Positions 6-45,254 of a stretch of 64,000 bases of DNA are shown piece by piece. Both the position numbers and the translations under genes were made by a program. How positions within the stretch are numbered: position 1 is the first letter of the stretch; each line of letters begins with the position of its first letter. The stretch is from a virus (lineage: Duplodnaviria; Heunggongvirae; Uroviricota; Caudoviricetes), in the IMG/VR virus record IMGVR_UViG_2718218135_000001, positions 1 through 64,000 of that record; one strand, 5' to 3'. The notes below the pieces were generated by a model. That model was given only the letters and a program-made list of their open reading frames with translations, had not been told where the DNA came from and searched no databases.

Positions 6-3731
<3,726 letters not shown>

Positions 3732-3903
3732 TCTACACTCGCGGCATTGGAAGCAAAGATATGGTCGTCTGGCACCTGATGCACATTGATAAGGCTATCA
3801 ACCACACGCTGGAGAAGTTCTTTCCACCAGCCTGAACACAATGATTGTGCGCCTTATAGCGCCCATTAAGATAGATAAGTACTTACCAACAAGGAGAAAA
3901 CAC

Positions 3904-4179
3904 ATGAAGACTTTGGTTCGCATTTCATCTAGTACCGACTATGACGTTTACCCGTTGTTCATGATCAAGTGCGACGGGCTGAACGATGAAGAAATTCAAG
4001 CGGCAATTGAACGCAATCTAGTTGAATACACAGGAATGGATGCGGATTCTATTTATATCGATGATGACGGTGTTTGTTGGCACAAAGGTAGCTGCTGGTA
4101 CGTCGACGACACAATGCTGGTAAGCGATGAAGACGCGGCCCATCTTGAGCGCATTTTGGGTATCAGCACTTTTGAGTGA
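3904..4179 (+). CDS. hypothetical protein
   Basis: ORF 3841..4179; preferred start is the internal ATG at 3904 preceded by aaggag; a copy of the AAGTACTTACC palindrome lies just upstream. Confidence 0.4.
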   Translation: MKTLVRISSSTDYDVYPLFMIKCDGLNDEEIQAAIERNLVEYTGMDADSIYIDDDGVCWHKGSCWYVDDTMLVSDEDAAHLERILGISTFE

Positions 4180-4218
4180 TATTTACAGCAAAATATATAA
4201 GTTAGCATTTACCTATCA

Positions 4219-4398
4219 TGAAAATTTTATTAGATATCACGTTACTTATTATCTCGATAGCCTTTGTGCTCGACTGCATCTTCACAGGGGCAATCCGTAA
4301 AGCGCTGGCGCCTGTTAATGATGTGATGATCAATGCGCTGGCCGTAGTACTGGTCTTCGACTCAGCATTAGGCGTTTTCAAAGGAGTCGTGGCATGAA
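4219..4398 (+). CDS. small hydrophobic (membrane) protein, 59 aa
   Basis: Read by eye, below the ORF-track size cut-off: MKILLDITLLIISIAFVLDCIF...; its stop overlaps the next ATG (ATGA). Confidence 0.3.
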
Positions 4399-4729
4399 GA
4401 AAACAGCCCTGGTACTGGCGCTGCTCACTCTCCCCGTCTTTGCGGACACACATGTCTATGAGTGCGAAATGTTTGTGGTCGAAGCGAAAAACGGCCTGAT
4501 CCGCAACGTCGTTAAAGCTAATTACGGCGCGATGGTTGTGGACCGCGGCGAACAGTTTTATGTGGTACGCGATGATCGCGTCCTGTCTTCCCCGTTTCTC
4601 ACTAAACGTAACGGCGAACTATCTGGCGTAGGTAAAGATAGGTTCGTTTACAACAAATCGGGTGATGTATACGGCGTTCACGCGAAGAACGACAGCTACC
4701 TTTTCGATGACTGCAAGGAGATTAGTTGA
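4394..4729 (+). CDS. secreted hypothetical protein
   Basis: N-terminal signal-peptide-like segment MKKTALVLALLTLPVFA; RBS ggag upstream. Confidence 0.5.
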   Translation: MKKTALVLALLTLPVFADTHVYECEMFVVEAKNGLIRNVVKANYGAMVVDRGEQFYVVRDDRVLSSPFLTKRNGELSGVGKDRFVYNKSGDVYGVHAKNDSYLFDDCKEIS

Positions 4730-4941
4730 TGGCGGTTACACTGACAGGTCTGGAAATCGAAAAAACAAGCGGCTACTGGCGTGCCAAAGGGTTCAAGCAG
4801 TCCGGCGTACTGGAACGACGGGAACGTGAAGATGGGTATATTGTCCACCAGCGACGTGAATGGCGCATGTACGATCCGGAAACAGGTAAGCTCGCAACGA
4901 AGGCCGGGACACTCTGGGGTCTGCTGAAGAAAATCCACTGA
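4726..4941 (+). CDS. hypothetical protein
   Basis: 71 aa ORF whose start overlaps the preceding stop. Confidence 0.35.
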   Translation: MMAVTLTGLEIEKTSGYWRAKGFKQSGVLERREREDGYIVHQRREWRMYDPETGKLATKAGTLWGLLKKIH

Positions 4942-4944
4942 TAA

Positions 4945-5545
4945 CACTATCCACTGCGGTGAGTAGCCAGCTCACCGCGTGTGAATCCAGCTCATAACCA
5001 CTGTAGCGAGTAGAACACCCTTCAGGTATGCACCCCAACCACTGTAGTGAGCAAACCCTCTGCCACGATATCAACTATCCACTGTAGTGAGTAAATTGGT
5101 GATTATCGGGGTCGCTATACACTGTAGTGAGTAAACAGGCGTTCACTGACTACAAACAACCACTATAGAGAGTGATGGAATGCCCCCTCCAGCGGATATC
5201 CACTATGGAGAGTAAATCTTCGCTGTTTTAAACGGATATCCACTCACTACAGTGGATAGAGGTCAAGTCAGCCAATTCTGCTCTTCACAGTGGATAGTCA
5301 ACAATGAGGAGAGCGACGATAACCGCTGTAGAGAGTAGACTTAACAGAGATACCCAGTGACCGCTAACCTCTCAGCCCTTGTTTTATCTATGTTTGCAAC
5401 CACTAACATTTACTTCGCGATTTGTGCGCACTGCCTACAGTGGTTATTCTTCGGTTTCTTTTACTCACTACAGTGGATATTGCATTTCCGATAAACAAAA
5501 AGGCTCACTACAGTGGATAGTGAGCCTTTTTACTCTCTACAGTGG
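4945..5545. repeat. Iteron array downstream of repA (incA-like), at least 13 copies of a ~17-19 bp repeat in both orientations
   Basis: Repeated ATCCACTGTAGTGAGTA and variants (ccactgcggtgagta, ccactatagagagtga, actcactacagtggata) spaced ~35-45 bp. Confidence 0.8.
5496..5533. terminator. hairpin terminator at the 3' end of repA
   Basis: aggctcact...agtgagcct stem flanked by an A-run and a T-run; the stem is itself built from an iteron. Confidence 0.5.
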
Positions 5546-35837: not shown

Positions 35838-36320
35838 ATGAATTTTATCGCTACTGTAAACGCACCCGCACATGGCAATATCGCTGTAACGTTCTCTGAC
35901 ATTGAAAAACGAGTACTTGGTGCATGGCGCGACAATGAGACGGTAGAACTGTCAGCACAAGAAAAATGCATTATTGCACGCGACATCATTGGCAATCGTC
36001 GTTACTCGCGGGTATTTGAGAAAGCATATGTGGTAAATTCTGGATTCGGAACGTTCGTCTTTCCGGTGCGCTCCGGGCGATTCTGCCAGTCCAAGCTGAT
36101 TGAGTTCGCTACGCAGATTTCTGTCTGGATTAAAACTCAATCGTCGTTCAAATTTTCCGACGATGAAGCAGTATCGCAGGGGATGCGGATCGCCAACAAT
36201 GCAATAAAATGCAAAAACATTACGTATGCCGCTGGCGTTGACACATGGAAACTGTTTTGCGCTAACTTTATGCTGAATGTATACGCAAGCAACCGCATCC
36301 ACATCCTTGATGGCGTGTAA
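35838..36320 (+). CDS. hypothetical protein
   Basis: 160 aa, RBS aaggaa; motif at 35805 preceded by taacaccaacaag; hairpin 36327-36352 downstream. Confidence 0.5.
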   Translation: MNFIATVNAPAHGNIAVTFSDIEKRVLGAWRDNETVELSAQEKCIIARDIIGNRRYSRVFEKAYVVNSGFGTFVFPVRSGRFCQSKLIEFATQISVWIKTQSSFKFSDDEAVSQGMRIANNAIKCKNITYAAGVDTWKLFCANFMLNVYASNRIHILDGV

Positions 36321-36867
36321 CTGAGAAGAGGGCCAGAAACGGCCCTTTCTCTATAGCCACCAGCTGCCGCAGGGAAATTTTCAGAAACGGCGAGGAACGC
36401 ATTCATGAGCCGAAGGGAAACGACCATGAAATTTTCTGGAAACGGCGGGGGTCGCCTTTATGTAGAAAACTGAGCGGGAGAAACCCGGAATCGCGCCAGA
36501 AATTGCATAGCGGCGCTGGGTAGTTGCTGGTGGGCTTTCAGCCCCTGGGCCATCCAGATAGCTTTCGCTATGTGATTATGTGAATCCGTGGGTAAATCAC
36601 TGTAAGCGCGTACACGTTGCCCAACGTGGCAATCATATGCGAGCGGATACAAAACAACACAAAGAGCCGATCCGCGCCGACAAATAAACGCGGATCACAT
36701 AGCAAGACTAAAAGCCAATGATTAACCATACTCTATAGCGCAATATAACGCGTTTTAAGCGCGTTAATGTGTTAAGTAATGGGTATGTACTGACAAGGAT
36801 ATAAAAGCGCGTCTATGGCGTTATTTTGGTGCTTATTTTTATGTTGTTGGAGTGAGTTAAAGACAAT

Positions 36868-37216
36868 AAAAAACGCGCCATCATTGGCGCGTTATGGTGG
36901 GAGTATTGGAAACGAAAAAAGCGCCCATAGTGGGCGCTCGATTTTATTTGTGTAAACTGATTTCAAATCCTATTTCTACAAACGCTTTCAACATTAAAAA
37001 GATATCAGCGTCATTCACGTCTGCTTTTTTTCGCTCCTGGTCGTTCAATAAGTCAATTTTGCGCGTTGTTTCATTTATAAACTCGACTGCGCGCCCAGCG
37101 ATCCCAGCGATCCCAGCGATGCGATTAACATAATATTCATTATGGACGTTAACGCCAGCGATAAGAACAAACATGATTAAGCTCCTTAAAACTAGCGCCC
37201 ATAGTGGGCGCTATAT
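36868..37216. repeat. Hairpin cluster: two identical GCGCCCATAGTGGGCGC palindromes, a third GC hairpin and a 9 bp tandem repeat
   Basis: acgcgccatcattggcgcgt (~36870-36892); gcgcccatagtgggcgc at ~36922-36940 and ~37197-37215; (agcgatccc) x3 at ~37095-37125. Confidence 0.6.
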
Positions 37217-37224
37217 CCATCTAA

Positions 37225-37875
37225 TTACGCTTTGAAAGCATCAGCCAGATAGTTATAAAAATCATTTTTAACGAAGCGATATTGCTGTGATCCGTTTTTC
37301 GCTGCACCCATTCCTTTGATTTTTTCGACCAGTCCCAGACGTTCGCAAAGATTGATAAGCTGGTTGGCTTGAGTGTATCCAGCGTCTAATTTTATTTCGT
37401 TGGCTTTTTTCGCTTCATTCATTAAATCGAAAACAGCGCCATTAGTGAACGTCTCGATCTCGTCGTTAATCATATCGATTAGAGCGAATACGCGAGATCC
37501 GGACATATCAGCGACGGAATAAACGCATTTACCAGACTTAATGGATTTAACCAGATAAACCAATTTTTCCAGTGAATAACTATTAGTCATTGCTTCGCGG
37601 AAAAATGCTTCAGGTGCTTGTTTGCTTGCTTTAATCGCGTAGTAAAACACGCCAGCTAATTTTTCATCATTAACAGCGTTTAAAACGTTGTTCGTGAAAT
37701 AAGCTAATTTAGTAGACGCTGCAAGCATGTTAGCTTTATCCGCTTTTGTGTGTGTACCATTTTTATAATGATTGTTATAAGTCTGGGTAGCGTTGTTGGC
37801 TGCAACTTGTAACTCATTAGCGATAACCACAGCAGCGTCGATGATAGCTTTTTTAGAAATGGTAACGTTAGACAT
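37225..37875 (-). CDS. hypothetical protein (low-GC island)
   Basis: 216 aa; low GC relative to flanks; terminator hairpin just downstream, own promoter region upstream. Confidence 0.5.
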   Translation of the reverse strand: MSNVTISKKAIIDAAVVIANELQVAANNATQTYNNHYKNGTHTKADKANMLAASTKLAYFTNNVLNAVNDEKLAGVFYYAIKASKQAPEAFFREAMTNSYSLEKLVYLVKSIKSGKCVYSVADMSGSRVFALIDMINDEIETFTNGAVFDLMNEAKKANEIKLDAGYTQANQLINLCERLGLVEKIKGMGAAKNGSQQYRFVKNDFYNYLADAFKA

Positions 37876-38189
37876 GATGTTAATCCTTAATAAGAGTAAA
37901 AATAAAATTCTTGTATCGTTAGCGTGTTCGCTTTCGATGTGAGTAATTATCGATATGCAGAAATTAAAATCAAGAGTTTTTTACGCGGGAGCGAAAAAAT
38001 TTTTATTCAATAAAAATCAAAGTCTTAGAAATAAAACGCGTTTTCTCGAAGGTGTTGCCTAAATAAATTCCCTATTCGGTCAATCACCCTTATATATTTA
38101 AAGTGAAATCGGGATTAGGGAAAATAAATATAACGGGAAGTGACACATAAAATAATAACCGGACTTAGCCGGTTATCACCCTTATAGAT

Positions 38190-38714
38190 TTAAAACGGTA
38201 AAATCCGTTCGACCCAATCGAAGAGAACTATCGTTCGTCCGCGCTCGCCAACTCTCATTGCGACCTGACAGGCATCAACGCCTAACGAACACCCCTCAAT
38301 TTCACGGCCATCCGCCATGTAGACCCTTATAGACTTTTGCGCCTCATGAGCTTGACGACAAATTTTGAAGAAATCGCGGCGAGATGGCCGATTGTCCACA
38401 TAGTCAGGGTGTACAGTGAGCCTACCTGTAAACATCTTGTCCACTTCGACAGGTGTAATTGTTTCTATGGTGCTAACTCGCTCCAATGGAAGACGAACAC
38501 GATGTTCTTTACTTCCTATAACGGGAGAAAGATCTAGCTTATTGCGTGCGGTAAGCAGACCAATAACGTAAAGACAAAACGTCTGACCATCATCGATCGT
38601 GACCCTTACAGGTATATTCCTTGCCCGTAGGAACTGCAAACTAAACTCCACGTTAGAGTAGTCGCGGGGCCAGACCTCTGCTGGGATGCCGTATGTAATG
38701 TCTGTGATCGTCAT
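38190..38714 (-). CDS. hypothetical protein (low-GC island)
   Basis: 174 aa; start overlaps the upstream stop; aaccggacttagccggtt hairpin downstream. Confidence 0.5.
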   Translation of the reverse strand: MTITDITYGIPAEVWPRDYSNVEFSLQFLRARNIPVRVTIDDGQTFCLYVIGLLTARNKLDLSPVIGSKEHRVRLPLERVSTIETITPVEVDKMFTGRLTVHPDYVDNRPSRRDFFKICRQAHEAQKSIRVYMADGREIEGCSLGVDACQVAMRVGERGRTIVLFDWVERILPF

Positions 38715-39304
38715 TAGTCTACCTTAAGTGGCGTGTCGAGAAGCCCAAACTTAAACTGCTTGCTACCTGCCACGAGGAAGGGGGCTTCGATGTAAATGGT
38801 TTTGTTGTCGATATCTGATTTTGCGGTCTTTTTGATGTCTTTTAGAAGCCTAATTGTTGCTGCGTTGTCCAGAACAAGTACTTTGCCGGTCGCATCATTG
38901 CCGATTTTGCCGTATGTCGTGAACGATTCATTACTGCCAACGCGGATATTAATCGGGCAACCGCTCTTGGCGATCTCATCACAGTACATAGTTCCATCAA
39001 TCACATTTAGTAGACCGTAGGTTGGAACAAGAGCCTTGCCAGAGTTGGTGCTTGTTCCTTCTTTGACAGCTGTACCCATGATTTGAAGGCGCATATGTTC
39101 TGATTCACCGGAAATCAGTGTTTCTTCCGCGTTATCGGAATACCTGAACCATACAGGTTGAACTGTTCCTCTGGCCTCGTATTTTACATTGTCTAGGGTA
39201 GTGAACTTGCTGTACGTTTTTTGCATGTCAGCAACCATATCTGACACTGCATTGGCAGAGAATGATAGAATATAGGTGGTTACTAAGATGGCTAAACGAG
39301 TCAT
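38714..39304 (-). CDS. secreted hypothetical protein (low-GC island)
   Basis: 196 aa with signal peptide MTRLAILVTTYILSFSANA. Confidence 0.5.
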   Translation of the reverse strand: MTRLAILVTTYILSFSANAVSDMVADMQKTYSKFTTLDNVKYEARGTVQPVWFRYSDNAEETLISGESEHMRLQIMGTAVKEGTSTNSGKALVPTYGLLNVIDGTMYCDEIAKSGCPINIRVGSNESFTTYGKIGNDATGKVLVLDNAATIRLLKDIKKTAKSDIDNKTIYIEAPFLVAGSKQFKFGLLDTPLKVD

Positions 39305-39602
39305 TCTGACCTCAAATTAACGATATGCTATTTCCAACAGAAGATGCTGCTTATAAACGCCTCAAGATGAAATCTGAATAATTTGTCTTTGAAAAAATTT
39401 CTCGCCATGAGTGATTTTACGCTCTAGCGAATTAAGAATTTCGTTAATGAAAATATTCATCCACCACCTCTGGCTCAAATTCCTCGGTTGTGAAGCCTAC
39501 AAATATTCGTCAACCGATCAAGAACTTTTTTTTCAGCCGGAGGTGTGCGAAATTGTGATATAAATCACATGCTGACATCTACAGACGCCAGCATATTGAT
39601 GA

Positions 39603-40142
39603 TTATTTGTCCAGCACTTTGTACTTGTTCGTAATCAAACGCTCACCCTTTCTGGTAACTGTAAAACCAAACGGCGCTTTGCTGTTTTTACGTAACACGC
39701 TTTCAGCGAGCGCTTCATCGGTAGGTTGTATAGTTGAATTGTCTATCCAGTCGATGAGGGTAAGAAAGTTTAAAAGTTTCATGCTCGTGACGCCCATCTT
39801 ACAGGCTATGTCACGGACGGTACGAATCTGCCTGCATTTTGTTTCATGTGCTGCGATAGGTGTCTTTGAATTGTTTGGTGTCAGTAACGTATCCAGTGTA
39901 TTAAAGAACCCCCTTGCGGATTCAGACTTAATAAGACCTGAGTCGCTCATATCACACGCGATACGGTACAGAATATTGCTGTTGTTCATGAAGGGATAGT
40001 TCTCAACGAATCTGACGAATGCTTGTGCATTTTTCTCTCCGCATTTGTAATCCAGCGGATTATCTACGCGCCAGAAAAATGCACTGTTGTTTTTTGCGTC
40101 AAAGATATCAACAAATGGTAGTTCAGCTAAATAGTTCATCAT
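39603..40142 (-). CDS. hypothetical protein (low-GC island)
   Basis: 179 aa, no motif recognised. Confidence 0.45.
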   Translation of the reverse strand: MMNYLAELPFVDIFDAKNNSAFFWRVDNPLDYKCGEKNAQAFVRFVENYPFMNNSNILYRIACDMSDSGLIKSESARGFFNTLDTLLTPNNSKTPIAAHETKCRQIRTVRDIACKMGVTSMKLLNFLTLIDWIDNSTIQPTDEALAESVLRKNSKAPFGFTVTRKGERLITNKYKVLDK

Positions 40143-40204
40143 GTGCTCCTTTGTAACTTGACGAGCACATGATGAACTACGAAATAAGGGGAAAAAGTGG
40201 AAGA

Positions 40205-40483
40205 TTACGGCAGCCGTTTGAGAATATCGGCCAGATCTTCTTTGGTCATACCCGAGTTTTCGTAAATCTTCATGACCTTTTCACGAGCCTTTGCAGTAGT
40301 CTCTAATGACGTAGCTATCTTATCAAAATCACCCATCGTCATATTGGACAGCACCAGATTGATGATGTCTGCCTTTGACAGTTTTATGCTGCGTTCACGC
40401 AGTCGATTCTGAAAGGTCTCTAGTTTATCGTTTGCTTTTTCGGTTAACTTAACCTGGCAGTTAATAGCGCGTTTCTCGCTCAT
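40205..40483 (-). CDS. small protein downstream of the helicase (UvsW.1-like position)
   Basis: 92 aa, coupled to the helicase gene (3 nt gap). Confidence 0.4.
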   Translation of the reverse strand: MSEKRAINCQVKLTEKANDKLETFQNRLRERSIKLSKADIINLVLSNMTMGDFDKIATSLETTAKAREKVMKIYENSGMTKEDLADILKRLP

Positions 40484-40485
40484 GC

Positions 40486-42045
40486 TTACTCTCTATCCAA
40501 AACAGTGAAATCGAATGTGCTGCCAACCGGCAAGACCCCCTCGGCAAACCCAGGCGTCGTGTCGATAATGTGTTTCCGCTCATATGAATGCGACATGAGG
40601 TATTTGTTGCTCACGTCGATGAAGTCGGTAATAAAGCACACGTTAGCCTGATTTTTCTTGGCTCGTAAGCCACGACCGACACGCTGTCTCATTTCAACTT
40701 CTGCTTTCCCGCCACCACCCAGAATCACCGCGCCTACGCTTGGAACGTCGACACCAACATCCAGAATGGTTGAACCAATGAGAACATCTATCTTGCCTGC
40801 CGCCAGACTATTAAGTTTTGCTTGTCGGGTAGTCTGGTTTGATTCTCCGTAGATGAAATCGACCTTGAGGCCACTCTCTTTCATCATTTCCATCAAGATC
40901 TGACCATGACGCTTCAGACGAACCAATGTCATACAGTTCAGACCGTGACTCTTGTACATTAGCGCTTCACGCACAATAGCTTCGTTGCGGCCCAGATTAT
41001 AGACGATGCCTAACTGATAGGCTTTCTGGTAAGCCGTGCTCATTCCAACCCTAAAATTCAGGTGTTTTGAAGCAAGTTCGGCTCTAATCCGCGTCTCATC
41101 TGGAGTGTACGCGATTTTATGATATAAAAAGTATGGTTTCGCTAAAATACCTCTGTCGATCAAATATTTCTCCGTTACTTTTATCTCGATGCGACCCGCA
41201 ACGGCCATGAGACGCATATTTGCTTCAGTCGAGTCCTTCATGAACGGCGTAGCTGTCAGCGCCAGACGGTAGTCGGCATTGGTACACAACCGGGCTATAT
41301 CGTAGAAGTTTGAGCCGGATGATTCGTGCGCTTCTTCCAGAATCAGCAGAGAAACGCTGGACAGGAAGCGCTTAACCAATTCCCGGCGTTTCAGGTGATA
41401 CTGTTTTTTCTCTGGAGATGCGTCGCGCGACGGCTCTTCGAGAAAACTAGCAAGGGTCTGAACCGTGGCAACGTTGATATGGCGCGATACCTGAAACTCA
41501 CCAGATCCAATCACCCCAACTTTCTGACCTTTCAGCCACGGCTCGCCATTCTTCGCGCGGTAGTCGATGGATTTCTGGAAGTTCTCTGCCATCTGGAACA
41601 TCAGAACCGAGCGCGTGGTTAAAAACAGCGTCATACGACCAATGCGAGCTGCTGCCTTACACGCTACGTTCGATTTACCGCCACCCGTCGCAATCTGGGC
41701 AATCATCATCCCTTCGCGCACCAGTGTTTCCACTGTCTGATCCTGATACGCGTAGTCCGGGTTATACGGGAATGGATTAACCACCGGATTCGGCTTACCC
41801 AGCGCGGGAGCTTTTTCCTTGCGAACATGCACGCATTTGATGCCAGCTTTCAGAAGATTGGTCGCAACTGGCTTCGCAAACCCAGCCGGGAACGCGTTTT
41901 TACTCCAGTTGAACATCGTGCTGGTCCCTTTCCAGTCACCAGCCTCCACTTCATAGCTCAACATCTCCTGAACAAGCCGTTTCACGTTGTCATCAGCGCC
42001 AGAAATCAGCGCATTGACTGCATTTGATACAATCCGAACAGTCAT
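40486..42045 (-). CDS. SF2 DEAD/DEAH-box helicase (UvsW-like)
   Basis: Motif I ATGGGKS, II LEEAH, III LTATP, VI QRVGRGLR; 519 aa. Confidence 0.7.
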   Translation of the reverse strand: MTVRIVSNAVNALISGADDNVKRLVQEMLSYEVEAGDWKGTSTMFNWSKNAFPAGFAKPVATNLLKAGIKCVHVRKEKAPALGKPNPVVNPFPYNPDYAYQDQTVETLVREGMMIAQIATGGGKSNVACKAAARIGRMTLFLTTRSVLMFQMAENFQKSIDYRAKNGEPWLKGQKVGVIGSGEFQVSRHINVATVQTLASFLEEPSRDASPEKKQYHLKRRELVKRFLSSVSLLILEEAHESSGSNFYDIARLCTNADYRLALTATPFMKDSTEANMRLMAVAGRIEIKVTEKYLIDRGILAKPYFLYHKIAYTPDETRIRAELASKHLNFRVGMSTAYQKAYQLGIVYNLGRNEAIVREALMYKSHGLNCMTLVRLKRHGQILMEMMKESGLKVDFIYGESNQTTRQAKLNSLAAGKIDVLIGSTILDVGVDVPSVGAVILGGGGKAEVEMRQRVGRGLRAKKNQANVCFITDFIDVSNKYLMSHSYERKHIIDTTPGFAEGVLPVGSTFDFTVLDRE

Positions 42046-42109
42046 AAACCTCTTTCCTTCGTGCCTTTTGTATGGTAATTGGCTATTATGTTAAGTAAGT
42101 ACTTACACA

Positions 42110-42808
42110 ATGGATTGTATCAAAAATATGGATGTGAAAATTACGATTCTACAGGTGGAAGTCGCGAACCTGCGTCCGAACCCCTGGAATACCAACTCCG
42201 TTGGGGCGCAAAACTTCGAAAAACTGAAAGGTTCCATCGAAAAGTTGGGCTTTTTTAAGCCAATTCTGGCGCGAGAGCTGGACGGCGGCATTTTTGAGAT
42301 TCTCGGTGGCGAACATCGCTGGCGTGCCGCGATGGAGCAGGGCATTTCAACGGTTCCCGTAATGTCGGTGGGAAAAATTAACGACCTGGTGGCCAAACAG
42401 ATGTCTCTCGTCGATAACGAGCGCTACGGCGAAGACGATCAGATCGCTTTGCAACGCTTAATCGAAGAAATTCAGTCTGAAATTGACTACCGGTTGTCTG
42501 ATATCGCCCCGTATGACGACGAAATGGCGGCAACGCTCGCCAAAGCATCCGTTATCGATCTTGAAGCGCTGGAAGCGCTCTCCCGCGGCGATGACGAGCC
42601 GGTCGGTGAGGACAAACGCGAGAAAATCGAGCGAGTCGGTGCTGAACACCAGACGATGCGCTTCAAGGTGACGTTCGATGCGTCAGATCGCGTCGCCGAT
42701 ACCATCAAAACCATCATCAAAGAGCAGGGAATCAATACCGGTAACGAAATGGAGAACGCCGGGGAAGCCTTGGTGTGGCTGGTCGACTACTACAAGGAGC
42801 GTATGTAA
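42110..42808 (+). CDS. ParB N-terminal-domain (ParB/sulfiredoxin-like) protein
   Basis: LRPNPWNTN and ILGGEHRWRAA motifs of the ParB nuclease-like fold; acidic C-terminal half. Confidence 0.55.
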   Translation: MDCIKNMDVKITILQVEVANLRPNPWNTNSVGAQNFEKLKGSIEKLGFFKPILARELDGGIFEILGGEHRWRAAMEQGISTVPVMSVGKINDLVAKQMSLVDNERYGEDDQIALQRLIEEIQSEIDYRLSDIAPYDDEMAATLAKASVIDLEALEALSRGDDEPVGEDKREKIERVGAEHQTMRFKVTFDASDRVADTIKTIIKEQGINTGNEMENAGEALVWLVDYYKERM

Positions 42809-43476
42809 TGACCAAGAACTTTGAAATCGTATATCGAAACCCGGCAGAACTTATCCCGTATGAGATGAACGCCAAAAAACATGACGAACAGCAGATCCAC
42901 GACCTGGCGGCTGCCATCAAAAAGCGCGGTTTTGACCAGCCGATCACGGTCGACAAGCACGACGTCATCATTACTGGTCACGGTCGTCGCGAGGCGGCAC
43001 TTCTGGCTGGTCTGGAGCGTGTGCCTGTCATCGTTCGCGACGATCTGAGCGAAGAAGAAGTGAAGGCGAAGCGTCTTGAAGACAACCGCCTGGCCAGTAT
43101 TGACTACGACGCCATCAAATTGCAGCAGGAACTGGAGTCCCTGGTGCTGGGTGACGTTGAGGTCTTTGGTTTTGAAGAGCGAGAGCTGAACGTGCTTGTT
43201 GGCAGCATGACCGAAGAGATGGAAACAGGCTCTCTGGTGCTCGATCTGGGTGAAGAGACGGAACGCCAGAAAGAAGAGCACACCGAGATCAGTCGCGAAG
43301 TGGCCTCTGAAGAAGTCCGAGTCATCGACGTATTGGGCTTTAAAACGCTCCCTGCTGGCTCTGCCATTGTGGTTGGGGATTTGCTTGCCCACATGGAAGA
43401 AATTACGGGAGAAAGCGGGGTAGACGCTTTCGTGGCGTATGCGGAGAAAGTTTCCTCTGGGGAGCTGGCTGCATGA
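42808..43476 (+). CDS. ParB N-terminal-domain protein (second paralogue)
   Basis: ITGHGRREAA motif; start overlaps the upstream stop (TAATG). Confidence 0.5.
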   Translation: MTKNFEIVYRNPAELIPYEMNAKKHDEQQIHDLAAAIKKRGFDQPITVDKHDVIITGHGRREAALLAGLERVPVIVRDDLSEEEVKAKRLEDNRLASIDYDAIKLQQELESLVLGDVEVFGFEERELNVLVGSMTEEMETGSLVLDLGEETERQKEEHTEISREVASEEVRVIDVLGFKTLPAGSAIVVGDLLAHMEEITGESGVDAFVAYAEKVSSGELAA

Positions 43477-44111
43477 GCAAATACACCATCAACGTATCGT
43501 TTCAGACCCGCGTGAACAAAACCACGCGCACGCTGGAGATTGCCGAATCGTTCGGTCTTGGCCTGGACGAAAAAGAGTGGACGCTTTACGACAATCTGGA
43601 GCTGGAAGTGAAGCAGGGCGATGTGGTGTACATCACCGGCCAATCCGGTTCCGGTAAATCCGTTGTGCTGCGCGAGCTGCAACGCCAGATGAAGGATGAA
43701 GGGCTTTCTGTAGCCTCCATCGATGACTTTGCCTTCGACAATGAGGTTAACGTCATTGACCAGCTGGGCAAAACCACCAGCGAAGCGCTGGGGCTGCTGT
43801 CTATGGCCGGATTGAATGACGCCTATCTCTTTGTGCGTAAGCCATTCGAGATGTCTGACGGCCAGAAATACCGTCTCAAGATCGCCAAGCTGATCGAGTC
43901 CGGCGCGAAAGTCTGGGCTGCCGACGAATTTGGCGCTGTTCTCGACCGTGTAACCGCCCAGGTTGTGGCGTCGAACCTCCAGCGTGCCGCCCGTAAGGTT
44001 GGTGCGACGGTAATGGTGGCGACGACCCACGAAGACCTGAAGAACGCGCTGCGCCCGGATATGCAGATCACCAAGCACTACAAAGAACGCGTGAAGGTGG
44101 AATATGCCTGA
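43473..44111 (+). CDS. compact ABC-type ATPase
   Basis: Walker A GQSGSGKS, signature-like SDGQKYRLKIA, Walker B VWAADEFGAVLD, H-loop-like TTHE; 212 aa. Confidence 0.55.
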   Translation: MSKYTINVSFQTRVNKTTRTLEIAESFGLGLDEKEWTLYDNLELEVKQGDVVYITGQSGSGKSVVLRELQRQMKDEGLSVASIDDFAFDNEVNVIDQLGKTTSEALGLLSMAGLNDAYLFVRKPFEMSDGQKYRLKIAKLIESGAKVWAADEFGAVLDRVTAQVVASNLQRAARKVGATVMVATTHEDLKNALRPDMQITKHYKERVKVEYA

Positions 44112-44358
44112 TTTGAAGATCGTAGAGCTGAAGCCATCGAAAGAGGCTGACAACAACAACGTTGAAGTCATCCGCCTGCTGGAAGAAGCACTCCAGTACG
44201 CCAGAGAAGGCAAAAGCCAGAGCCTGGCACTGCTGATGATCAACAACGACGGCAGTGTGCTGGATTGCTGGCATAACGGTGGGCGTCCATACGTCATGGT
44301 TGGGGCGATAGAATCGCTTCGCCTGGACTTCATCAATGCCAATATCGAGCGTAGGTGA
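44104..44358 (+). CDS. hypothetical protein
   Basis: 84 aa ORF overlapping both neighbours. Confidence 0.4.
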   Translation: MPDLKIVELKPSKEADNNNVEVIRLLEEALQYAREGKSQSLALLMINNDGSVLDCWHNGGRPYVMVGAIESLRLDFINANIERR

Positions 44359-45254
44359 TCGACATGACAGGCATCATCATCAAACGCTACCGCCCGGAAG
44401 AGTTCCCGCGTCATCTGGACTTTCTGGAGCGTATGACCGTTACCAAAGGCACGGTTGAAGACTGGCACGCGCTGAAGTCGCTGCACTACAAGACGGATGG
44501 TAAGCCGTTTGCGCCAACGTATTATCGCTGCGAACTGGACGACCGGCTGGTGGGCGTCGTGGTTATGGCTTACCCGAAACTGCTGCTGGCGCCTCGCCAT
44601 CGCATGTTTCCTAAGCTGAAGCCAACCACCAATACCACCGTGGCCAACCAGTATTGGGGGCGGTACGTGAACAACAACTTTGCGGTGATCAGCCGTTCCG
44701 TTGTGGACACTCAGTACCGCGGTGTCGGCGTCTCCTATCGAATGATTAACCTGGTTAGCAGGATGCATAACCGGCCAATCATCGAGATTCAGTCGTCCAT
44801 GAGCAAATACAACCCGTTCGCCATGAAAGCAGGGTTCCAGTTCATACGTCCGGAGCGTCCGAAGAGCTATGAGAGTGCGTTGCGTGTTTTCCAGCGCCAT
44901 TTTCGCTCCGACCCTGGAGACAACGAAGCGATCGTCAAAGAGCTGTTCGCCATGAGTGAGTCTCGCCGTCGTCGTGCGCTGCGCGATCTGGTCGCGGACT
45001 ACCACAAGAACAGTTCCCTGGCCAAAGCCGGGCGTAATCGTGGCACGACGATTCAGGATATTGCCGACAGTCTGGTGGACGAGGCCAGCATCGTGAAGTT
45101 GCTCAAGGATATTCACAACCTGAGCTTCACGTCTCCGCTGTATGGCGTGTATCGAAACCCGGACTTCGGTCGTCAGTTGCCTGACACGCTGCCACTGCTG
45201 GCATTCGATAAGCAGCCTTTGAATAAACCTCTTGAAATTGCATTACCGGCATAA
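44355..45254 (+). CDS. GNAT-like acetyltransferase-fold protein (putative)
   Basis: Motif A-like YRGVGVSYRMINLV and motif B-like NPFAMKAGFQF; start may be GTG 44355 or ATG 44364. Confidence 0.4.
   Translation: MIDMTGIIIKRYRPEEFPRHLDFLERMTVTKGTVEDWHALKSLHYKTDGKPFAPTYYRCELDDRLVGVVVMAYPKLLLAPRHRMFPKLKPTTNTTVANQYWGRYVNNNFAVISRSVVDTQYRGVGVSYRMINLVSRMHNRPIIEIQSSMSKYNPFAMKAGFQFIRPERPKSYESALRVFQRHFRSDPGDNEAIVKELFAMSESRRRRALRDLVADYHKNSSLAKAGRNRGTTIQDIADSLVDEASIVKLLKDIHNLSFTSPLYGVYRNPDFGRQLPDTLPLLAFDKQPLNKPLEIALPA

Follow-up and report, generated by a model that had tools for sequence, protein, structure and literature searches.

An AT-rich interval of an SSU5-family phage-plasmid reads as conserved backbone around an exchangeable cargo slot and encodes a predicted FljA-family protein

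Introduction

Positions 37225-40142 of a 64,000-nucleotide stretch of Caudoviricetes DNA (positions 1 to 64,000 of IMG/VR record IMGVR_UViG_2718218135_000001; this whole stretch is called the window) carry four minus-strand open reading frames (ORFs) of 179, 196, 174 and 216 amino acids (aa). A preliminary description made from the sequence alone placed these ORFs exactly and took them for an AT-rich island that looked horizontally acquired, a strong candidate for an uncharacterised system with defence, exclusion or toxin cargo. The question that this locus raises is whether the four genes are a single unit at all. Our analysis indicates that the interval is probably conserved backbone of the SSU5 phage-plasmid family with a recombination-prone cargo slot in its middle, and not one system. 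Of wider interest is the 174-aa protein, which would be a translational repressor of the FljA family, is a universal and lysogeny-expressed part of this backbone, and probably has a target other than flagellin.

Results

Placement and distribution of the four genes

The 5.6 kb around the interval matched the E. coli plasmid pRHB03-C12_2 (IncFIB, non-mobilizable) over its full length at 98.9% identity, had matches in 789 PLSDB plasmids, and showed 89.9% identity to Salmonella phage SSU5 over 64% of its length; because of these matches we assign the window, by sequence, to the SSU5/pHCM2/pMT1 phage-plasmid family. Searches of PLSDB with tblastn gave widely differing counts for the four genes. 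The 216-aa protein was found in 814 records, mostly at 80-99% identity, and the 174-aa protein in 830, whereas the 196-aa protein returned 64 records and the 179-aa protein 182. The ratio of nonsynonymous to synonymous divergence (dN/dS) was 0.03-0.13 for the 216-aa gene and 0.12-0.20 for the FljA-like gene, which indicates purifying selection on both. We read the 216-aa and 174-aa genes, from these comparisons, as family backbone and the 196-aa and 179-aa genes as cargo. Homologues of the 216-, 196- and 179-aa proteins were confined to contigs of SSU5-type size (~105-115 kb). The four genes are thus not kept as a set among relatives and, as described below, they fall into separate transcription units, so that the view of them as one island or system did not hold.

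In annotated relatives the local order is a 160-aa gene on the plus strand; 76-aa, 216-aa, 'transcriptional regulator', variable, 92-aa and DEAD/DEAH helicase genes, all on the minus strand; and a ParB-like operon on the plus strand. SSU5 (genes 119-124), Y. pestis pMT1 and S. Typhi pHCM2 share this frame with the window. A distant Klebsiella lineage, in which the FljA-like protein is only 37% identical but still matches PF03614 (E = 3e-26), retains the order helicase, 92-aa-like, FljA-like and ~217-aa genes; in this lineage and in locus L016 no gene lies between the 92-aa-like and FljA-like genes, and loci L010 and L016 are without the slot altogether. Since the slot-less distant lineages keep the same order, the frame running from the helicase through a small ribbon-helix-helix (RHH)-like protein (92 aa), the FljA-family protein (174 aa) and a winged-helix protein (216 aa) to the 76-aa gene appears to be ancestral, and the gap between the 92-aa and FljA-like genes would be a cargo slot. 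The conserved frame with a variable slot was found in at least 10 loci, and the variable cargo that had been suspected next to the helicase operon is borne out in this form. The transcription units deduced from sequence are helicase, 92-aa and 179-aa genes; 196-aa and FljA-like genes; the 216-aa gene alone; and the 76-aa gene with its terminators.

Base composition and the mosaic block

The compositional dip that had suggested acquisition is real. The window has a mean GC content of 0.492; that of 37225-40142 is 0.414, and just 0.3% of same-size segments (mean 0.494, standard deviation 0.028) fall below it; however, the minimum among such segments lies at 36701-39618 and the dip is uneven gene by gene. 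The 216-aa gene (GC 0.389, z = -3.1) is the lowest of 49 long ORFs, the 179-aa gene (0.420, z = -2.3) and the 196-aa gene (0.445, z = -1.6) are less extreme, and the 174-aa gene (0.480, z = -0.6) is unremarkable, so that the AT-richness ascribed to all four genes applies, unevenly, to three. Two AT-rich spacers (GC 0.318 and 0.376) deepen the dip. In every lineage examined, the 216-aa gene has a GC content of 0.38-0.41 and its upstream spacer one of 0.31-0.35. Because AT-richness peaks in the best-conserved gene, whose GC content is equal across lineages, the low GC of this gene and its spacer is an old trait and no mark of recent acquisition. Deviant GC and patchy presence go together in the 196-aa gene (64 plasmids) and the 179-aa gene (182 plasmids), which fits the proposed horizontal acquisition of these two; the 216-aa gene is the most AT-rich and yet is present in 814 plasmids, and the FljA-like gene has a normal GC content and is present in 830, and both are better described as backbone.

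The mosaic structure was resolved by comparison with SSU5, pMT1 and pHCM2. In these elements the 216-aa protein is 96-97% identical to that of the window and the DNA of the helicase and 92-aa genes ~93% identical, whereas the FljA-like protein is only 70-71% identical, and the slot holds a 140-aa DUF2846-like lipoprotein without a 179-aa gene. Synonymous divergence (dS) from pMT1 is 1.16 for the FljA-like gene, 0.35 for the helicase gene and 0.55 for the 216-aa gene, and positions 38715-40211 have no counterpart in SSU5 or pMT1. Because of the excess of FljA-like over helicase dS and the absence of 38715-40211 from SSU5 and pMT1, we place the real mosaic block, relative to these two elements, at ~38190-40211, where it would comprise the diverged FljA-like allele and the 196-aa and 179-aa genes. 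The FljA-like allele itself appears to have been replaced; it is here a rare diverged form of a backbone gene, with only 13 of the 830 records at ≥95% identity and 769 at 60-80%. We considered and rejected the idea that the FljA-like allele varies strictly together with its upstream partner or with the 216-aa gene, given that the same allele type occurs with different partners in loci L003, L007 and L009 and that in the window a rare FljA-like allele stands beside a 216-aa gene of SSU5 type.

That the four genes nonetheless form one horizontally acquired, island-borne defence, exclusion or toxin system is very improbable, and the distribution data already largely refute it. Although the interval is the most AT-rich of the window, the low GC is ancestral in the 216-aa gene. 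Two of the genes are accessory, but the plasmid counts of all four are discordant, and they lie in separate transcription units with terminators of their own. The 216-, 196- and 179-aa proteins gave no Pfam, NCBIfam, PADLOC or PDB-sequence match, yet the fourth protein belongs to a known regulator family, and a search of PADLOC-DB v2 with the seven proteins from 35838 to 40483 returned no family at E ≤ 1. A whole SSU5-like plasmid did cut foreign-DNA uptake in Klebsiella (PMC8969562), an effect that was tied to no gene. Both the distribution and these searches are consistent with conserved backbone around a cargo slot, and the proposal of a defence, exclusion or toxin system was not upheld.

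The cargo slot and its occupants

The slot neighbourhood was inspected in 15 loci. An exported-protein gene adjoined the FljA-like gene in 13 of the 15, lying directly upstream with a 4-5 nt gap or overlap in 11 and on the opposite strand in two type D loci. Counted by presence, the occupants fall into four types: a 140-aa DUF2846-like lipoprotein in SSU5, pMT1, pHCM2, Kluyvera and Buttiauxella elements (type A, 655 records); a 196/197-aa Sec-signal protein in this window and locus L007 (type B, 64 records); a ~118-aa signal-peptide protein in Klebsiella (type C, 76 records); and a 266-aa lipoprotein on the opposite strand in Cyrano and locus L009 (type D, 61 records). These types sum to about the number of plasmids with the FljA-like gene. 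To judge by their sequences, the occupants are exported proteins of unrelated types.

A further copy of the cargo was seen in contig L011 (JAEWTL010000044.1), which is binned as a 'Bacillota bacterium' metagenome-assembled genome. Its positions 3232-5522 hold 179-aa, 196-aa and FljA-like genes apparently identical to those of the window (FljA-like 100%), with a near-identical 92-aa gene; the contig almost certainly belongs to an enterobacterial phage-plasmid and was mis-binned.

Transcription of the orthologous region in a lysogen

Expression could be assessed in Cyrano, a relative for which RNA sequencing of an LF82 lysogen is available (PMC9928086, S1 Table; values are log2(FPKM+5), FPKM being fragments per kilobase per million, with a floor of 2.32, and the ranges cover culture medium and macrophages). 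Against structural genes at ~2.5-4.3, the FljA-like gene (CYRAN_114) lay at 7.0-8.1, the slot lipoprotein gene (CYRAN_115) at 7.9-9.4, the 92-aa gene (CYRAN_117) at 8.6-9.9, among the most highly expressed genes of the phage-plasmid, and the helicase gene (CYRAN_118) at 7.2-8.4. RepA, ParA and the putative repressor have values comparable to those of these four. The 179-aa family gene (CYRAN_116) was at 4-5.9. The 216-aa gene (CYRAN_113) was at 2.8-3.9 and reached ~5.6 only at 6 h in macrophages, along with capsid and tail genes, and the 76-aa gene (CYRAN_112) was silent. In view of these values, the part from the helicase to the FljA-like gene behaves as lysogeny-expressed in Cyrano, and in the same lysogen the 216-aa gene behaves as repressed.

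The 196-aa exported protein

The 196-aa gene (38714-39304, minus strand) is predicted to encode a Sec-exported cargo protein. Its product begins MTR, continues with LAILVTTYILSFS and then ANA|VSD, and the pattern SFSxNA(V/L)SD is conserved in homologues, so that the signal peptide recognised earlier is plausible and of a conserved Sec type. The stop codon of this gene overlaps the start of the FljA-like gene as TAATG, an arrangement that we read as translational coupling. An exhaustive profile search with the family found 7 relatives among 1.84 billion representatives, none of them outside the family.

Phage-encoded envelope proteins commonly serve exclusion, T5 Llp and Cor being examples. The 196-aa protein might likewise be a superinfection-exclusion or receptor-masking factor whose coupling to the FljA-like gene is incidental, a proposal that is compatible with a cargo slot in conserved backbone. 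We hold it as a tentative possibility: the protein is predicted to be exported, the slot in relatives holds other lipoproteins or signal-peptide proteins, and the Cyrano occupant is strongly expressed in the lysogen, but profile searches found no homology of the 196-aa protein to known exclusion proteins, structure prediction gave no usable model, and its signal peptide is of the Sec type and, in contrast to Llp and Cor, lacks a lipobox. A role in exclusion or in modifying the surface would be a reasonable guess.

A FljA-family protein in the backbone

The 174-aa protein (38190-38714, minus strand) matched Pfam PF03614, Flag1_repress ('Repressor of phase-1 flagellin'), at E = 6.4e-69 (231.6 bits against a cut-off of 24), with residues 5-171 on profile positions 1-170 of 170, and also matched phrog_1444. 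It can therefore no longer be said that none of the four proteins carries a placeable motif. Genuine fljA loci were reached with a query sequence that matched annotated fljA at 96-99% identity; these annotated genes come from Salmonella and E. coli plasmids (loci L018-L020). The window protein was 34% identical to LT2-type FljA (E = 5e-34) and 33% identical to linear-plasmid FljA (E = 3e-31), in both cases over the full length, and 19 columns were invariant across the FljA and phage-plasmid clades. The alignments place it in the FljA family, as a putative RNA-binding translational repressor, with the phage-plasmid copies as a separate subfamily. A terminator hairpin at ~38150-38175 lies 3' of the gene. 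In the GenBank entry for SSU5 the orthologue is already named 'putative repressor of phase 1 flagellin', and we found no literature linking FljA to SSU5, pHCM2 or pMT1. A peptide-pattern scan of genome contigs for FljA relatives returned SSU5-type loci alone, the patterns being too specific, and neither the single 174-aa sequence nor the FljA-like profile gave anything useful against sequences of solved structures.

One of the genuine loci, L019 (NZ_CP063337.1, positions 2317-4034), lies on a conjugative IncF plasmid of E. coli, where a flagellin gene and a genuine fljA-type repressor are flanked by insertion sequence (IS) elements; this E. coli locus is a flagellar phase module carried on a plasmid and has no relation to the SSU5 family.

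The hosts bear on what this protein might silence. Neither Klebsiella nor Y. pestis is known to be flagellated or motile, and the FljA-like gene is kept under purifying selection in elements of both (341 Klebsiella records and 62 records of Y. pestis pMT1). Characterised FljA acts post-transcriptionally on fliC mRNA, blocking its translation, and a plasmid carrying fljA turned motile E. coli non-motile (PMC2652032). By analogy, a full-length family member with the conserved motifs, whose Cyrano orthologue is transcribed in the lysogen, might block translation of host fliC and render the lysogen non-motile, allowing escape from flagellotropic phages or host immune detection. LF82 with Cyrano, however, is hyper-flagellated and shows FliC-dependent motility (PMC10809763) while transcribing the orthologue. 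Given both this conservation in elements of non-flagellate hosts and the motility of LF82, host flagellin is unlikely as the main target, and with just 34% identity to genuine FljA and no flagellin gene adjacent we regard such silencing of motility as doubtful. A search of the window for a mimic of the fliC leader gave a best match of 11 nt (E = 1.4), at the level of chance, which is a weak argument as the target would be chromosomal. The 174-aa protein is most likely, on its family membership, a post-transcriptional repressor with a target other than flagellin.

The 216-aa protein and its upstream spacer

For the 216-aa protein (37225-37875, minus strand) a confident structure was predicted, with a long N-terminal helical hairpin and a C-terminal winged-helix domain, and on this model the protein probably binds DNA. 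The winged-helix DNA-binding types ArsR/SmtB, MarR and TubR are without the long N-terminal hairpin, and there was no sequence-level family match and no whole-protein structural match. The AT-rich spacer upstream of the gene (37876-38189, minus strand, GC 0.318) contains a promoter-like site at 37973-37946, the hairpin already described and a 20-nt direct repeat, TTTAAAT[A/C]TATAAGGGTGAT on the minus strand, whose copies at 38083-38102 and 38175-38194 are 92 nt apart. The window has two occurrences of its core, ATCACCCTTATA, where 0.16 would be expected, and one copy is conserved in the same spacer of SSU5, pMT1, pHCM2, Kluyvera and Buttiauxella elements; the repeat may be an operator. A homologue of the 216-aa protein labelled Finegoldia magna (P0091) looks mis-binned, like contig L011.

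The 92-aa and 179-aa proteins

The right edge of the slot is formed by the 92-aa backbone gene (40205-40483, minus strand; phrog_1466, with a weak match to the transcriptional repressor family phrog_4268), whose product looks like an RHH DNA-binding protein by sequence pattern. After it, separated by 62 nt, comes the 179-aa gene (39603-40142, minus strand), which has a good Shine-Dalgarno sequence and is predicted to encode a cytoplasmic cargo protein of a family confined to SSU5-type contigs; the window protein itself had no PF03374 match, and the profile of the family gave no useful match to solved structures. The order and sizes of the two genes fit a type II toxin-antitoxin pair with the antitoxin first and the toxin second, the 92-aa protein weakly matches the Pfam addiction-module antidote family PF21716 (E = 0.081) as well as the repressor phrog, and Cyrano carries several toxin-antitoxin pairs elsewhere. 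The 92-aa gene, however, was present in every locus examined, including the most distant lineages, whereas the 179-aa gene was found in 182 of ~830 plasmids, so that the two are not an obligate pair. There is in addition no coupling across the 62-nt gap, no PADLOC or Pfam toxin match, and a difference of ~10-30-fold between the transcript levels of the Cyrano orthologues. We rejected the toxin-antitoxin reading on co-occurrence and consider it most unlikely.

Hairpins and flanking regions

The hairpin cluster with twin identical palindromes at 36868-37216 had been proposed as the boundary of the island. The twins are real, the palindrome AGCGCCCATAGTGGGCGCT occurring at 36920-36938 and at 37194-37212, and on the minus strand each comes after a stop codon, that of the 76-aa and that of the 216-aa gene respectively. 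The first copy forms a terminator-like hairpin right after the 76-aa gene (36919-36939, -15.5 kcal/mol) and is followed by UUUUUU; the second forms one after the 216-aa gene (37194-37212, -18.1 kcal/mol); and a further hairpin (36872-36893, 9 pairs and then a T-run, -14.8 kcal/mol) is the second after the 76-aa gene. Because these stem-loops of -15 to -18 kcal/mol stand after stop codons, with a U-run after the first palindrome, we read all three as ordinary intrinsic terminators. The cluster is more than a bare boundary, since it contains the conserved 76-aa gene (36944-37174, minus strand; phrog_1585, E = 1.8e-35), which is annotated in relatives. A stem-loop after the 179-aa gene (39567-39596, minus strand, -20.3 kcal/mol for two adjacent hairpins) is a weak terminator candidate. 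A scan of Rfam gave sub-threshold matches only, among them one to Hrs1 that overlaps the terminators and scored 32 bits, the gathering score being 56.4.

The 76-aa gene contains at 37089-37120 a 9-nt tandem repeat, GCGATCCCA, in three copies that encode IAGIAGIAG. The SSU5 record labels its homologue 'MIT family metal ion transporter CorA', a label for which our profile searches gave no support. Beyond it, 36330-36940 is ~600 nt of non-coding DNA between the 160-aa (plus) and 76-aa (minus) genes, in which GCGCG/AACGCG motifs are numerous and a 38-nt stretch is directly repeated, imperfectly, at 36370-36407 and 36425-36462. On the other side, the DEAD/DEAH (UvsW-like) helicase gene (40486-42045, minus strand; from the annotation of relatives and the ORF list) is the first gene of the minus-strand operon, and a divergent plus-strand operon at 42110-45254 encodes, by the annotation of relatives, two proteins with ParB/Srx N-terminal domains followed by ABC-type ATPases; the homologous operon is silent in the Cyrano lysogen. 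Four relatives (NZ_CP079773.1, NZ_CP079776.1, NZ_CP141793.1 and NZ_AP027577.1) carry the IS5-like element ISKpn26 inside the region homologous to 36500-42100, which therefore tolerates insertions.

Discussion

Together, these data make it probable that the interval is SSU5-family backbone interrupted by a cargo slot. Several points weigh against this interpretation. The plasmid-wide slot counts record presence only, adjacency having been checked in the 15 loci. Cyrano, the relative that supplied the expression data, has a FljA-like protein of 63% identity, and its slot is taken up by another gene, for a lipoprotein encoded on the opposite strand. A search for a sigma-70-like promoter ahead of the 196-aa gene found none, and AlphaFold2 with an 11-sequence alignment gave a mean predicted local distance difference test score (pLDDT) of 46 for its product and no usable fold. 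A sub-threshold match to the KilAC/ANT domain (PF03374) appeared in 3 of 22 members of the 179-aa family (best E = 0.026). In addition, the roles of the exported, FljA-like and 216-aa proteins are inferred.

With backbone and slot so read, the region would work as follows. In the plasmid-prophage state the part from the helicase to the FljA-like gene would be transcribed, as seen in the orthologous region of Cyrano. The 196-aa exported protein could be a moron that acts in the envelope, in lysogenic conversion or exclusion. The FljA-like protein, if it behaves as its family suggests, would bind an mRNA leader and block translation, as characterised FljA does on fliC mRNA, and an element-encoded or other host transcript would be a likelier target than host flagellin. 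The DNA-binding 216-aa protein, silent in lysogeny, would probably act at the start of the lytic phase, to judge by its fold and expression.

The locus illustrates that old backbone with ordinary terminators can show up as a sharp AT-rich dip between hairpins, and that a real mosaic block may overlap the compositional signal only in part. SSU5-type phage-plasmids are very common in clinical Enterobacteriaceae, and the ~830 PLSDB plasmids with this region all encode a FljA-family protein. The sole characterised relatives of this protein silence flagellin translation, yet many of the hosts are without flagella and one carrier is highly motile. Were its RNA target identified, it would become clear whether a medically widespread element exerts a new form of translational control during lysogeny. 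The exchangeable exported proteins, for their part, would matter if they change the surface of the cell or keep other phages out.

Among known systems, the slot resembles phage morons and lysogenic-conversion cassettes, being variable among close relatives, terminator-flanked and devoted to exported proteins, and the orthologous slot is transcribed in the Cyrano lysogen, as moron cassettes are. For the pair of 196-aa and FljA-like genes, variability and a terminator were found and no promoter was detected, and the lysogenic transcription was seen for the Cyrano slot, with its other occupant. The slot departs from morons in two respects, namely that no separate promoter was detected for its 196-aa gene and that it is not free-standing but lies within, and is coupled in translation to, a conserved regulator gene.

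The closest comparison is with FljA of Salmonella and its plasmid relatives (fljA(z66) on pBSSB1), which has the same size (~175 aa), belongs to the same family and shares with the window protein the motifs DI(T/S)YGxxAExWPR(D/E)Y, PSRRD(F/Y)F, I(R/K)(V/I)(Y/H)M, GV(D/N)ACQV and FDWVxRI. Identity is only 33-34%, and the FljA-like gene, unlike fljA, is kept in elements of non-flagellate hosts, while the carrier of a related allele, LF82, is motile. At the genuine loci L018-L020 the upstream gene encodes flagellin, whereas in the window it encodes the 196-aa non-flagellin exported protein and in relatives an unrelated Sec-exported protein or lipoprotein. By analogy with fljB-fljA, the FljA-like gene and its upstream exported-protein gene might form a general 'install mine, silence yours' cassette, in which the exported protein goes to the envelope and the co-translated repressor stops translation of a competing non-flagellin transcript of host or phage. 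We rate this idea as rather unlikely; were it true, FljA would be the prototype of a broader class of translational repressors that are carried by phages, specific for an mRNA and active in lysogeny. What fljA and the window gene have in common in their setting is that each lies on a mobile element, as the distal gene of a bicistron that begins with a gene for an exported protein.

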